NCBI GenBank assembly: GCA_951406725.2
Contig: OX597823.1
Coordinates: 75,268,001-75,332,000, forward strand
Reading direction: 5' to 3'
DNA: 64,000 bases
Origin: Octopus vulgaris
Lineage: Eukaryota
Position numbers and translations under genes: made by a program. The notes beneath the pieces are model-generated. The model was not told where the DNA came from. It saw only the letters and a list, made by a program, of their open reading frames with translations, and did not search any database. Numbering within the stretch: position 1 is the stretch's first letter; every line of letters starts with the position of its first letter. Positions 27,146 through 64,000 of the stretch are shown here, piece after piece.

Positions 27146-29093
<1,948 letters not shown>

Positions 29094-30554: not shown

Positions 30555-30895
30555 TTTTCTACTACCGGCACAAGGCCCGAAATTTTGGAGGAGGGAGCTG
30601 GTCGATTCAATAGACCCCAGTACGCAACTGATACTTAATTTACCGACCCCGAAATTATAAAAGGCAAAGTCGATCACGGCAGAACGACGAAATACCTATT
30701 TGTTTACTACCCACAAGGAGCTAAACACAGAGAGGACAAACAAAGACAGACAACCGGATTAAGTCGATTATATCGACCCCAGTGCGTAAATGGTACTTAT
30801 TTAATCGACCCCGAAAGAATGAAAGGCAAAGTCGATCACGGCGAAATTTTAACTCAGAACGTAGCGGCAGACGAAATACCGCTAAGCATTTCGCC
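30555..30895 (-). mobile_element. Nested/dimeric tRNA-derived SINE (Nin/Deu-like): two bodies with different tails
   Basis: Two copies of AAAGGCAAAGTCGATCACGGC. The 11-mer GACGAAATACC is repeated at 30686-30696 and 30870-30880. Confidence 0.85.
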
Positions 30896-31905: not shown

Positions 31906-31942
31906 GCGCAGGAGTGGCTGTGTGGTAAGAAGCTTGCTAACC
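31906..31942 (+). mobile_element. 5' head of an OR/CORE-type SINE, interrupted by a 4.27-kb insertion
   Basis: GCGCAGGAGTGGCTGTGTGGTAAGAAGCTTGCTAACC matches the start of the uninterrupted copy at 37391. The SINE resumes at 36213. Confidence 0.9.
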
Positions 31943-33880
31943 TTGAAAGTGTTCGGACGTGTTTTTTAGCTGCTGCCGGATGTCACGTCTTTCGGCGTGA
32001 ATTATTGAATTTTGAGACTCGACTACAGGTAGGCGTTTGCTGTACATTTTTAGGGGCTTAGTGAAGTTTATTGCTCTGTATTTATTATTTTTTGGAGAGT
32101 AATAGACTCCACTTTGCTCCTCATATTTTTCTGTCTGTGGTCGAGCGTAAAGACTCACTTTGCAGTGAGAATTGTGGTTTTGAGGAGGCGTAGCCCCCCC
32201 TCAAAAATTAATTGCCTTTCTGTTGGATTTACCAAGAAGTACCAAGGATAACCAAGAACTGTTTTGGACGTTTGGCCAGGAGTGCCTTTTCGGCCATAAA
32301 AATTAATTCCTTTGCTGAATTTGAACTCTCTTCTTTCAGCTATCGTTTATTTTAAAAATAACTCTTCTGAACTGTTATTTTATTGTAATTCTTCTCTACT
32401 GTTATGTTTTCCCTTCTCCCTTTTGTATCTTATTTATTTCTTACACTTTTGAACTTTAATTGAATTCCGTTTCGAAATGCCAAAAAATATTTAAAAGAGC
32501 TGGAAAGGAAGACCGTGGTGTTGAGGACTTATTCGAAGTCGCTCGACAACATAGCTGTCTTCCCAAAGGTCACAATTTAAAACGAGCTGGCGGACTACAT
32601 GCAAGCCGTTAAATTTATCTCACGGGGAGTGAAATACGCAACGGTCTGGTTGCTATTTGACTCCCCAAAAGAAGCTTGCGACTTTCCAAGCCATCCCCTT
32701 GAGGGCAAAGAAATATTGTTTCTCCCAAACTATATGGGAGAAAAAACTATTGAGGGCTTGGATCTGCGGCCTACCACCCGGAGTTGAGCCGGAGTGGATA
32801 GAGGACTCTATCCGCCGGGGTCTGGGTGGTAGCAGTGCAAAGCTGCTAAATGTAAAAATGTTGCCTGCGGCTGATTGGGAGGGGTCGAAAGCTGTTTTGA
32901 CCCTATGGAACCAATCAGCCAAAAGTCTGGTTTTTCCAGATTTCTTGAGGATGGCCGGGTCCAGGTATCTGGTGATGCTTGAGGGCCCCCCACAAGTGTC
33001 GCTTGTGCCTGGAGACCGACCACATTAAGAAGAACTGCCCCAGGGACCAAAGTAGGATCCTGGAGCAGTTAATGTTGGAATCTCTCCCTGCTCCCCCAAT
33101 GGAGTGAGAGAAACAGAACGAGGAAATTGCTACATCATAAGAAAAAGGAAAGATGGGCAATAATGGTGACCCACAGAAAGACCCGGGAGCTGCGGGAGAA
33201 AAAGAGGACCCGTTGTGTGCAACACGGGAGCCTCACCCTCCCGCGGCCCAGGAAAAAAAAGAAGAAAGAGAAACAGGACGCCGCCGGCGGATTGTAACAC
33301 GCAGACGGCGTCTCCCAAGCTTCCTCAGGCGGGTATGCCGCCGGAGGATCAATATGTGGTCCTCTTCCACAAAGGACGAAAGCTTGAAAACGAGATAGGT
33401 AAAATGAAAGAGAAAGGCCAATGGGAGGGACTTTGGTCCTGCACGGAGGACCCTGAGTGGCCTTCGCAAGTGGCTGCTGAGGTCCTATGGGATAGCGATC
33501 TGTGCAGGATCGTGAATTCCTTCCCGGAGGACTCCTTTCAATATATACCTGAATGGCGCGGCCCGACAAAGAATGATTGCCTCATTAAAGCACGAGCGCT
33601 GGTCGGCCGAGTGACTTGAACTTTTTGAATGTTTTAAAAAGAAAAATTGTATCATATTGAGAAAGAGGTTCATTGCCTCATTTTGACTTTTGTGAAATTT
33701 TGGACTTTGAATTTTTTGAAAAAATGTACATTGTCTTAGAGAAGCGGAAGTCGGCGGGCGCTTTCGTCTTCTCACATCACCATCTTTGTTTCATCACCAT
33801 CATTCATACCATCAATGTCTACGTCCAGTCCGCAAAGCTACATCTATGTACTGCCTTCATGGCAAATTTACTGAATAAAA
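31943..33880 (+). mobile_element. ORF1-only non-LTR retroelement, copy A (HAL1-like architecture; Tx1/L1-type gag-like ORF1)
   Basis: ~530-bp 5' leader, a degenerate ORF with a CCHC knuckle, a structured 3' tail ending AATAAAA, then the target copy GTAGCTTGTTAAC (33881-33893). No RT or endonuclease motifs. Confidence 0.82.
32477..33619 (+). pseudogene. gag-like ORF1 pseudogene (RRM-like region, CCHC knuckle, K/E/R-rich linker, C-terminal domain)
   Basis: TVVLRTY...KFISRGVKYATVWLLFDSPKEAC...RAWICGLPPGVEPEWI. The knuckle CRLCLETDHIKKNCP is in a shifted frame near 32996-33040. Collinear with copy B. Confidence 0.8.
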
Positions 33881-33893
33881 GTAGCTTGTTAAC

Positions 33894-36212
33894 AGGTTGC
33901 TTCTACGCATGTGCAAGTCAATGTGGTGCTCGACACCGAAGATGTAAGACGTGTTTTTGAAAGCCGTCTTAAATTGAAGATTTTTGAATACTCAGCCGTA
34001 AGGTAAGAATTTTGGGGGTCTTGTGGGGACCTGTTTTATGTTGCAATTTATTTTTACAAGCAACAAGTCTTCACTGAGCTCTTGTCTGCCGCAGGCTGAG
34101 TGAAAATATTATTCACTTAATTGTGAAAATTATTGGTTTGGTAGGCGTATCCTGCCAAACTTTCGTTAAAGTTGGAATGATTTTTTAACTGTTTTCTTAA
34201 ATTTTGGCCGTAACGGTGAATTGAGAATTCTTCTTGTGAATTCTAGTGGGCGTATCTCGCAAGAAAACTATAAGAATAAGCCACTTGGATTACCCTTTTG
34301 GATTACCTTTTGGACAAATTTTTGTGGAAGTTGTGTTCCAGTTGCGGCGTTCCAGGTTCAACTTAGGCCGGGAGTACCGTAAGGCCAGAAGATTTTTGCT
34401 GTGTTTTTGCTGTTTATTGACTTTCTTTTGAACTTTATTTAACACCCCTTTTTGTTTGTTTTTTTTTGTTTATTATGACTTTCCGTTGATTTCTTCCCTT
34501 CTGTTGTGCTTTCTCCCTTTTGTATCTTCCCTATTTTTTCAAAAAAATCTTTCGAATTTTATTTGGACTTTTTTCTTCTCGCGTTTTAAGTTTATTTTGA
34601 ATATATTTAAAAAAACAAAACAAAACATGGCAATGAAAAATGACAAAATTTTGGAATGGGAGATTATACCGCCTAAAATGTGGTTAAAAGACCGTGAAGA
34701 TAGGACGGTGGTGTTGAGAACCTACTACAAGCCACTCGACACCATCGCCCTATTCGAAAAGACGGCAATTGAAAAGGAGTCGGCAGGGTATTTGCCAACA
34801 ATTAAGTTCATTTTCAGGGGTGTCAGATATGCAACGGTGTGGTTGCTATTTGACACCCCTGAAGAGGCTTGCAAATTAGCTAGTAAACCCCTGGAGGGTA
34901 AGGACATTTTATTTCTGCCCACGTACCATGGGAAGAGACTGACGAAAGCTTGGATCTGCGGGCTGCCACCCGGGATAAAACCCGAGTGGATAAAGGAGAG
35001 TATCCGCCGGGGTCTGGGTAGCAGCGGAACTAAGCTTCTTAATGTGAAAGTTCTTCCTGCGGCTGTTTTGGTTGGGTCAAAAGCAATTTTGACCCTTCGG
35101 ACCCAATCAGCCAATGTGATTCTTCCAGATTTTTTGAAAATGGCCGGGTGATACTTGAGGGTCACCCCGCTAGGTGTCATCGGTGCTTGGAGTCCGGCCA
35201 TATAAAGAAAAACTGTCCCCGGGAACAAAATAGGATCCCGGAGCAGTTAAGTGAAACCCCTGTAGAAGAGGGAATGAAGACGGCCGAAGAAGCGGAGGAC
35301 TCCTCAAACAGAGGCCGAAAGGGGAAGGTGAGCAACAATGGATGCTCACCAAAGGATACTAGGGATGAGGAGCGAAAGGCGAATCTTCCGGCCGCAGAGG
35401 AGACGCACCCTCCCTCAGTTGAAAAGAAAAAAGAAAAAAGAGGAAGAGAAACGGGACATTACCGGCAGTCGGTGACATAGTACCAGAATGTCCCGGAACT
35501 ACGTCGGTTGGGGTTGTGCCACCGACAGGAGAAGAAACACCGTTGGTGGGAACTGTGCCGCCAACGAAGAATTGAATATCCAGCGCCCGAGGAAAAACGA
35601 TGTATTGATCCTCTTCCATAGAGGCGGAGAGATTGAAAAGGTGATGGAAAAGCAACATAAGGGAGCACCTTTAGCCTTCACACAGGACCGCGAATGGCCT
35701 CAGCAGGTAGCTGTGGAGGCCGTGGCGTTCGACGTGACGCTTGGGCTGAAGGAGCTCAATGAGGATTATAGCTTGGTCCCGGGCGACGCTAACACGGAAC
35801 TCGATTACATTCTGAGGGAGGCGTGGTGGATGACGGAGGGTGCGGGCACAAGTTATTTTGAGGACGAGTCATAAATTGTGATACGACTTGAGGGGCCCCG
35901 ACCTAGAGCTGACGCATTCCTAAGGGAATGTAAGCCAGGTATGTGAGGAGGGGCTTGGTGTATTGTATTTATATCATATGTAATCAAGTCCAAAAATTGA
36001 AAAGTTGTAAAAATTGTAAGAGGTTTAATATCTCGTTTTGTGTTTGTTTTTAAAAGAACAATGTTTTAGAGAAGCAGAAGTCGGCGGGCGCCTTTTGTCT
36101 TCTCCCATCCCCATCTTTCTTTCATTATCCTTCATTTCATTAATGTCCTCGTCCAGCCCGCAAAGCTAACTTACTCTATGCACTGCCTTTAAGGCAAATG
36201 TTATGAAATAAA
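33894..36212 (+). mobile_element. ORF1-only non-LTR retroelement, copy B (diverged relative of copy A)
   Basis: ~730-bp leader, ORF1, ~340-bp 3' UTR with the same structured tail ending AAATAAA, then the target copy TAGCTTGCTAACC (36213-36225). Confidence 0.82.
34627..35874 (+). pseudogene. gag-like ORF1 pseudogene with CX2CX4HX4C zinc knuckle
   Basis: ATG at 34627 (MAMKNDKILEW...). ORF pieces 34456-35151, 35148-35480 (CHRCLESGHIKKNCP) and 35488-35874. Confidence 0.85.
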
Positions 36213-36600
36213 TAGCTTGCTAACCAACCACAAGGTTCTAGGTTCAGTCCCACTGCTTGGCATCTTGGGCAAGTGCCTTCTGCTATAGCCCCAGGCCGTC
36301 CAATGCCTTGTGAGTGGATTTGGTAGACGGAAACTGAAAGAAGCCTGTCGTATATATATATATATAAATATACATGTATAGGTGTGGGTGTTTGTGTGTC
36401 TGTGTTTGTCCTCCTAGCATTGCTTGGCAGCCGATGCTGGTGTGTTTACGTCCCCGTCACTTAGCGGTTCGGCAAAAGAGACCGATAGAATAAGTACTGG
36501 GCTTACAAAGAATAAGCCTTGGGATCGATTTTCTCGACTAAAGGTGGTGCTCCAGCATGGCCACAGTCAAATGACTGAAACAAGTAAAAGAGTAAAGAGA
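36213..36600 (+). mobile_element. Remainder of the interrupted OR/CORE-type SINE
   Basis: AACCACAAGGTTCTAGGTTCAGTCCCACTG (B box), TTGGGCAAGTG core, an internal TA/TG tract, and the 3' end GACTGAAACAAGTAAAAGAGT. Confidence 0.92.
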
Positions 36601-37390: not shown

Positions 37391-37569
37391 GCTGTGTGGT
37401 AAGTAGCTTGCTTACCAATCACATTGTTCTAGGTTCGGTTCCACTGCGTGGTACCTTAGGCAAGTGTCTTCTACTAGGATCTCGGGCCGACCAAAACTTT
37501 GTGAGTGGATTTGGTAGAGGGAAACTGAAAGACGCCCGTCGTGTGTATGTATGTATGTATGTATGTATG

Positions 37570-37600
<31 letters not shown>

Positions 37601-37765
37601 TTGTTCCCTCAACATCACTTGACAACCCGTAATTTAGCGGTTCCGCAAAACAGACCGATAGAATAAGTACTAGTCTTACAAAAAGTCCTGAGGTCGATTT
37701 GCTCGACTAATGGCGGAGCTCCAGCACGGCCGATGTCAAATGACTGAAACAAGTAAAAGAGAGAG
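37391..37765 (+). mobile_element. OR/CORE-type tRNA-derived SINE, uninterrupted copy
   Basis: GCTGTGTGGTAAGTAGCTTGCTTACCAATCACATTGTTCTAGGTTCGGTTCCACTGCGTGG... through GACTGAAACAAGTAAAAGAG. Confidence 0.92.

Positions 37766-63606: not shown

Positions 63607-64000
<394 letters not shown>

Follow-up and report, generated by a model that had tools for sequence, protein, structure and literature searches.

We examined a 64,000-nucleotide stretch of the Octopus vulgaris genome (GenBank assembly GCA_951406725.2, contig OX597823.1, positions 75,268,001 to 75,332,000 of the forward strand; hereafter the window), in which a short interspersed nuclear element (SINE) is interrupted by two elements, E1 and E2, that carry open reading frame 1 (ORF1) of a long interspersed nuclear element (LINE) and no ORF2. 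By direct reading, three target copies bracket E1 and E2, which lie head to tail and split the SINE head from the SINE body (Table 1). This is the layout proposed in the initial annotation of the window, which was made from the letters alone. It was confirmed here, the two halves of the SINE being contiguous in the copy at 37391. Neither E1 nor E2 of the window contains a reverse transcriptase (RT), an endonuclease or terminal repeats. The first two absences had been noted before, and based on the third we rejected an origin from a long terminal repeat (LTR) element or endogenous retrovirus (ERV).

Table 1. Features of the interrupted SINE and its two inserted elements, in window coordinates.
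Feature	Position	Strand	Basis or remark
Host SINE 5' head	31906..31928	+	sequence; aligns with intact SINE copies
A-box-like motif in SINE head	31915-31925	+	box identity by eye
Target copy 1, 13-bp duplication with one mismatch, GAAGCTTGCTAAC	31929..31941	+	direct reading
Element 1 (E1): ORF1-only non-autonomous LINE, E1 subfamily, decayed copy	31942..33880	+	29 further copies; no ORF2
GGACGTG motif, element position 14; possible downstream promoter element	31955..31961	+	same position in 23/84 elements
E1 broken ORF1: two RNA recognition motifs (RRMs), CCHC knuckle, basic linker, C-terminal domain	32477..33619	+	three-frame translation; intact relative L054
E1 CCHC knuckle	32997-33038	+	within broken ORF1
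E1 3' tail: 4-bp hairpin TGCC-N5-GGCA, then AATAAA	33852..33880	+	common to ORF2-bearing families
Target copy 2, GTAGCTTGTTAAC	33881..33893	+	T variant also at 5' junction of E2 relative L002
Element 2 (E2): ORF1-only non-autonomous LINE, E2 subfamily, decayed copy	33894..36212	+	29 further copies; no ORF2
E2 initiator-like TCAATG, then AGACGTG 27 nt downstream; possible internal RNA polymerase II (Pol II) promoter	33918..33953	+	
E2 broken ORF1, open for 174 aa	34627..35891	+	intact 427-aa relative L013; predicted fold
E2 CCHC knuckle, downstream of frameshift	35175-35216	+	within broken ORF1
E2 3' tail: hairpin and AATAAA	36184..36212	+	tail comparison
Target copy 3, first G missing	36213..36224	+	direct reading
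Remaining host SINE: body, (TA)n middle, AAAAGAGT-type tail	36225..36600 (end approximate)	+	74% identical to copy at 37391
B-box-like motif of host SINE	36241-36250	+	by eye
Uninterrupted, 5'-clipped copy of same SINE, showing empty target	37391..37765	+	halves contiguous

The initial annotation had assigned to each element a gag-like ORF with a CCHC zinc knuckle and an A-rich 3' end. An ORF1 with a knuckle is present in both, but in the window both frames are broken by stops and frameshifts, with 13 nt missing from that of E2 near 35149 and a D where G is expected in the knuckle of E1. Intact ORF1s were found at other loci (L013, L054 and L069). The A-rich end was a misreading: both elements terminate in a small hairpin followed by AATAAA, which is joined straight to the target, and there is no poly(A) tail. 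Identity between E1 and E2 amounts to 72% across 585 nt of the ORF core and 79% across the last 164 nt, with short matches only elsewhere, in agreement with the clear divergence of leaders, linkers and C termini described earlier. The elements most closely related to E1 and to E2 occur singly or next to other elements. On the grounds of this divergence and these relatives we rejected a tandem duplication, and we uphold the two independent insertions that had been proposed.

The interrupted sequence had been called the tRNA head of a SINE. A tRNA origin is suggested by A-box-like and B-box-like motifs, recognized by eye, at tRNA-like spacing, but neither ARAGORN nor Rfam matched the SINE head to a tRNA, as is usual for old SINE heads. 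No real tRNA gene was found by ARAGORN at the junctions of 57 loci; its single call, a tRNA-Ser(GCT) at L068:2817-2904 (-), falls inside an element, antisense within an E2 ORF1, and is probably due to chance. The insertion site falls between the two box-like motifs, and an insertion there would inactivate the SINE copy concerned, a minor loss given more than 57,000 targets. The earlier suggestion that the SINE may serve as a safe landing site is plausible. At L038, an ORF encoding a C2H2 zinc-finger array lies beside a filled SINE, ~900 nt from the element. Named octopus SINEs include OR1, OR2 and OK, and OR2 has been described as a CORE SINE (PMC4758252).

Target site, 3' tails and partner LINE

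As an exact 31-mer, the empty target occurs 57,456 times genome-wide, and the filled junction, also as an exact 31-mer, occurs 469 times, compared to 0 occurrences for each of the reversed controls. Occupancy of the site is thus not a matter of chance, and ~0.8% of well-kept targets are filled. In an unranked exact search of the genome, the 25-nt E2 tail was found 272 times and was directly followed by GTAGC in 254 of these. The flanks, the randomness of which had been set beforehand as one of the refuting tests of the initial annotation, are therefore not random. DNA searches of the genome with E2 and E1 gave 3,143 and 2,530 first-look candidates, respectively, of which 40 were scored and 30 fetched in each case, so that these figures are not copy numbers. 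The junction of tail and target was present at 27/30 E2 loci and at 27/30 E1 loci. The 29 further copies fetched for each subfamily were 77-92% identical for E1 and 80-91% identical for E2. Both subfamilies occur as dispersed copies on many contigs, interstitial in the SINE, with target duplication and 5' truncation and without terminal repeats.

A partner encoding an apurinic/apyrimidinic endonuclease (APE) and RT, with the same tail and target, had been predicted, and such a family was found. In the array at L073, a 5.66-kb ORF1-ORF2 element lies directly upstream of an E2 copy. This partner LINE of ~5.4 kb has the same site, the same 13-bp duplication and the same 3' hairpin-AATAAA tail as the ORF1-only elements; all 30 of the relatives examined end at the target, and 25 copies average 99.2% identity. 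The intact copy L117 is flanked by a perfect 13-bp duplication and encodes a 467-aa ORF1 with a zf-CCHC domain above the cut-off and an open 1,133-aa ORF2 with endonuclease (PF03372), RT (PF00078) and zf-RVT (PF13966) domains. The best PDB match of this ORF2 is human L1 ORF2p (E 1e-66), with R2 proteins at 1e-20, and the nearest named protein to the partner is from Argonauta hians (60% identical). Partner and ORF1-only copies are found in the same arrays at L072, L073 and L105.

The partner has features of the Tx1 clade, namely an APE endonuclease, an RT and a C-terminal zinc motif of the L1 group, sequence-specific insertion, and an ORF1 combining a CCHC knuckle, detected in the partner as zf-CCHC, with RRMs, which are taken from the model of the homologous E2 ORF1. 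Protein searches with the partner returned no match bearing the name Tx1, and we therefore label it a putative L1/Tx1-group LINE, judging by the arrangement of its domains, the type of its ORF1 and its targeting. In an older ORF2 family, the ORF1 is of the partner type in the 4 of 14 genomic windows that hold an ORF1 core. A more distant ORF2 family is represented at L012:4231-4983 and at L178, the latter 59% identical to the partner ORF2.

The ORF1-only satellites and the partner LINE have ~45 terminal nt in common, including the TGCC-N5-GGCA hairpin. In this hairpin 97.6% of 84 cells are paired, two of the four pairs show a change on both sides, and 2 of 500 shuffles were as high. Arrays of two to five or more units, with the 13-mer between units and with types mixed, are common; in addition to E1 and E2 we distinguish ORF1 types C, D and F. 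A long array at L061/L062 (G000:C7:13459000-13478999) holds at least four ORF1 types (E1, C, D and F), most units being parted by the variant target GTAGCTCGCTAAC, and its D-type units are only ~1.45 kb long. At G000:C1:29271018-29279237, three C-type units that are 98-99% identical stand in tandem, owing either to recurrent insertion or to recombination at the locus, and an E2-type tail follows at a distance of 2.2 kb. Two mini-elements, of 93 bp (L124:1415-1507) and 343 bp (L066:5487-5829), lie between target copies, retain the two ends of an ORF1-only element and are possibly non-coding bipartite derivatives.

Absence of ORF2 and conservation of ORF1

Among all loci fetched in the E1, E2 and partner searches, near-duplicate loci included, there are 84 distinct elements with a target copy at both ends. 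An E1/E2/C-type ORF1 is present in 61 of these, most of them 1.9-2.35 kb long, and an ORF2 match in none of the 61, the outcome anticipated when this check was proposed. All 16 elements with the other (partner-type) ORF1, which measure 5.2-6.6 kb, contain ORF2. The remainder comprises four elements with a D/F-type ORF1 and no ORF2, and three that are short and non-coding. As family copies consistently lack ORF2, we rejected a one-off deletion as the origin of E1 and E2. A family-blind sample was drawn by taking the filled junctions of contig C1 in listed order up to the 30th, with 7 kb of upstream sequence for 20 of them and 1.5 kb for the other 10. In this sample the last element was ORF1-only at 15 sites, ORF2-bearing at nine, and short without a coding match at six.

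The E2 ORF1 is 31% identical to the partner ORF1 over 197 residues (E 1e-24). A tree built from 32 open ORF1 cores groups E1, E2 and C on a single branch apart from the partner (support 100/100). The D/F ORF1s fall closer to the partner, a position suggestive of a second ORF2 loss in the D/F lineage. According to the Nei-Gojobori method, applied to open cores only (17 ORF1-only rows of types E1, E2 and C), dN/dS was 0.17 between E1 and E2, 0.20 between E1 and C, and 0.13 between E2 and C, compared to 0.17 within E1, 0.25 within E2, 0.33 within C and 0.16 within the partner family. Judged from these ratios, of which the between-subfamily range of 0.13-0.20 answers a check proposed earlier, the ORF1 of the ORF1-only lineage is under purifying selection.

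Full-length copies that are 99% identical exist at four other loci for one E2 subfamily and at two for one C subfamily, on different contigs. The E2 core has 76% identity with a protein of Octopus sinensis, and related ORF1s have been recorded from O. vulgaris, O. bimaculoides and Argonauta, the relation to other octopod ORF1 proteins being expressed as identities from alignments. By sequence comparison, the ORF1-only lineage is old, yet has recent subfamilies.

A model of the ORF1 core based on a 121-row alignment (predicted local distance difference test, pLDDT, 85) contains two RRM-like domains and the knuckle. Its top structural matches are tandem-RRM proteins, with Z up to 8.8 for single domains. 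The single-sequence prediction had a pLDDT of 34.5, a Pfam scan of ORF1 identified zf-CCHC only and no RRM, and a sequence search of the PDB with ORF1 returned knuckles only. The predicted architecture is that of a type I ORF1 as defined previously (PMC5203782), consistent with Tx1-type elements. ORF1-like sequence is also annotated as host protein, or joined to WD40 or LDL-receptor domains, in P0204, P0121, P0331 and P0248, one of which is named EPM2A-interacting 1-like; this is presumably mis-annotation or exon capture, and calls for caution in annotation, as these ORF1s are listed as host genes in octopus protein sets. ESM Atlas look-alikes of residues 1-215 of the L013 ORF1 include RNA-binding domains of ZCCHC3 (score 0.91), which reportedly restricts L1.

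Proposed mobilisation in trans and its alternatives

We consider it highly probable that the two copies in the insert are separate members of an old LINE lineage with ORF1 only, placed at one fixed site in an abundant SINE head and likely mobilised in trans by a co-resident L1/Tx1-group LINE that uses the same site. Mobilisation in trans is likely in view of the common target, the common tail and the arrays, and the interpretation given in the initial annotation is supported overall. Pol II would transcribe the element from an internal promoter, and the element's own RRM-RRM-CCHC ORF1 protein would coat its RNA. The ORF2 protein of the partner would then bind the shared 3' hairpin-AATAAA, and its endonuclease would nick the bottom strand between TAA and GTAGC, where reverse transcription would be primed. 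A top-strand cut ~13 nt downstream would lead to the duplication, and because the duplication would re-create the target, later elements of any subfamily could join and arrays could build up. In R1 arrays of Drosophila 28S genes, new copies enter the 5' duplication (PMC2718515), and by analogy E1, which lies upstream, would have arrived later than E2. This order fits the position of E2 as the last unit in 7 of the 9 arrays with a visible end. The nearest relatives of E1 (92% identical) and of E2 (90-91% identical) do not separate the relative ages of the two insertions.

Several points weigh against this account. The 84-element set, being defined by target copies at both ends, says nothing on specificity. 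The hairpin in the tail has just 4 bp, each of its double changes is due to a single family, and the folding of the tails is not superior to that of shuffled sequences (z 0.19, -0.40 and -1.88); given its small size and this folding, the shared hairpin is supporting evidence only. The ORF1 tree carries a long-branch warning, and dN/dS is biased low because only copies with an open core were used. With only ~40 candidates scored per genome DNA search, an ORF2-bearing family with an E-type ORF1 could be missed. Finally, the 11th target base is polymorphic, and among 64 elements followed by the SINE body the 5' and 3' copies disagree as A/T in 10 and as T/A in 1; given this bias, not every 5' junction can be explained by duplication from a staggered cut alone.

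The small number of scored candidates favours an alternative in which the ORF1-only copies are short-lived deletion products of unsampled autonomous families with an E-type ORF1, selection having acted in the parents. It is also favoured by the existence of several octopod ORF1 lineages and by the second ORF1-only type (D/F), the position of which nearer the partner suggests that ORF2 was lost more than once. We regard this alternative as improbable, given the absence of ORF2 from all 61 E1/E2/C-type elements. None of the nine ORF2-bearing elements at the 30 unselected sites showed an E-type ORF1 either, though only two of these nine reached ORF1. Moreover, dN/dS is low inside E1 and inside E2, each of which has one ORF2-less layout, and young full-length ORF2-less copies exist at 99% identity. 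That the 3' joint lies at one nucleotide across all families, and that 3' target copies track the local SINE variant and not the element subfamily, argues against a choice of site by RNA-DNA pairing, in which read-through transcripts would anneal to SINE copies and a non-specific endonuclease of this or another LINE would cut. Specificity in the Tx1 group has, besides, been attributed mainly to the endonuclease (PMC4494074). We thus find pairing very improbable as the selector of the site, even though it would agree with the lack of a poly(A) tail and with subfamily-specific 5' target variants (L001/L002 and L025/L026), which suggest target sequence on the RNA; pairing may assist the 5' joint.

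It is conceivable that the insert spread together with the SINE head and body in a single composite transcript, or that arrays arose by unequal recombination between target copies, the targeting being inherited in either case. Nearly all copies do have the same SINE context, the three C-type units of one array are 98-99% identical, and a C-type unit followed by E2 recurs at three loci. However, the 5'-truncated copies at L007, L047 and L141 still have the upstream SINE head and target copy, an arrangement that could not result if a composite were copied from a 3' primer. Partner copies that are nearly identical are found in different SINE variants, and arrays combine unrelated types in many orders. 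We accordingly assign this possibility hardly any probability.

The 5' ends of the elements contain an RGACG(T/C)G motif at fixed places, at position 14 in 23, at 43-44 in 29 and at 54-55 in 11 of the 84 elements. When the motif is at 43-44 or 54-55, the element itself contains an initiator-like A 27-28 nt upstream of it; when it is at position 14, the matching upstream initiator spot falls in the SINE just before the target. These 5' motifs may represent an initiator and a downstream promoter element (DPE). The biased 5'/3' disagreement described above, together with 5' target variants common to a subfamily, suggests that the 5' target copy is partly carried on RNA, and E1-type transcription may start in the target. 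Target copy 2 of the window may be partly element-templated, as the 5' junction of L002 has the same T variant. We also observed that 5' ends are swapped between families: the first ~30 bases are the same in a partner subfamily (L104) and in E1-type L042, L048 and L066, and an E2-type 5' end is found on the E1-type bodies of L049, L052 and L053.

Only tentatively, one may envisage a three-layer parasite system composed of a SINE landing pad, a site-specific LINE, and more numerous, long-lived ORF1-only satellites that arose at least twice. For some subfamilies (the E1 type and one partner subfamily), the target would be the start of a Pol II promoter, whose initiator would lie within it and whose downstream element would lie at position 14, and the 5' "duplication" would be partly RNA-carried. 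The SINE target would then be both address and promoter.

Relation to known elements

ORF1-only LINE derivatives on record are HeT-A (Jockey), HAL1 (L1) and Ag-Sponge (CR1) (PMC5786205, PMC5753468). The octopus elements likewise encode ORF1 only and would depend on an autonomous LINE as these do. The known cases belong to the L1, Jockey and CR1 clades of mammalian and insect genomes, with none listed from Tx1 or as SINE-targeting in the portions of those papers covered here. Unlike them, the octopus elements possess an RRM-RRM-CCHC ORF1, no poly(A) tail and one insertion site. As in other ORF1-present non-autonomous LINEs, ORF2 is absent, copies are retrotransposed, ORF1 is selected and homologous to a LINE ORF1, and the 3' end is that of an autonomous LINE. 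HAL1 proper is derived from mammalian L1 and has a Transposase_22-type ORF1, whereas the octopus ORF1 is predicted to have two RRMs and a knuckle. HeT-A is found at chromosome ends, whereas the octopus copies are interstitial in the SINE. The octopus system would work like HAL1 or HeT-A but belongs to neither, and its helper would be an L1/Tx1-group LINE with a SINE head as its target.

Targets of the Tx1 clade comprise Tx1D, U2, U5, 5S, microsatellites, Mariner, Harbinger and LTR elements, as exemplified by Tx1 in Tx1D, Tx1-Mar in Mariner-N4_AMi, Keno in U2, Dewa in a tRNA-Leu spacer and Mutsu in 5S (PMC4494074, PMC3706591). Like these, the octopus partner is an APE-RT LINE that inserts at a fixed site within a multicopy sequence; the excerpts of the two papers mention neither a SINE-head target nor ORF1-only satellites. 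The crocodilian SINEU-3 is, as in octopus, non-autonomous, has the target of its partner Tx1-Mar in common and forms tandem insertions around the duplication (PMC4494074), but is short and non-coding, whereas the octopus elements are ~2 kb long and encode a protein under selection. R1 is also an APE-type LINE, with a 14-bp duplication by which array copies are parted; by contrast to the SINE target and ORF1-only members in octopus, its target is rDNA and its array members are autonomous.

A 2026 annotation of the Octopus vulgaris genome reports 13 recently active L1-Tx1 families (PMC13282606), and L1-Tx1 has been listed as abundant (PMC8967140). The main text of the former, as far as covered, makes no mention of targets or ORF1-only forms; its repeat library or supplement may hold these sequences, and a Repbase or Dfam entry for this family is quite possible. 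Our literature search, in which coverage of subscription papers was thin, identified no paper describing this family or reporting a SINE head as a target. ORF1-only LINEs and repeat-targeting Tx1 elements are each known, and their combination was not found in the literature searched.

The L1/Tx1 group in an invertebrate would provide a fourth setting for LINE derivatives that keep ORF1 and drop ORF2. As every insertion is at one defined site, the question of why a non-autonomous element keeps its ORF1 is directly testable, candidate reasons being a need in cis, partnership with the helper ORF1, or competition. Young, intact copies exist for both satellite and partner, and the latter would be a natural sequence-specific APE-type retrotransposon with a SINE target.

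Elsewhere in the window, 30601-30680 and 30763-30842 form an 80-nt direct repeat (84% identity), which probably represents a different short repeat present twice. A (TA)n tract of 1.9 kb occupies 27146-29088, and a pure A run of 112 nt at 63672-63783 may be an assembly artefact.

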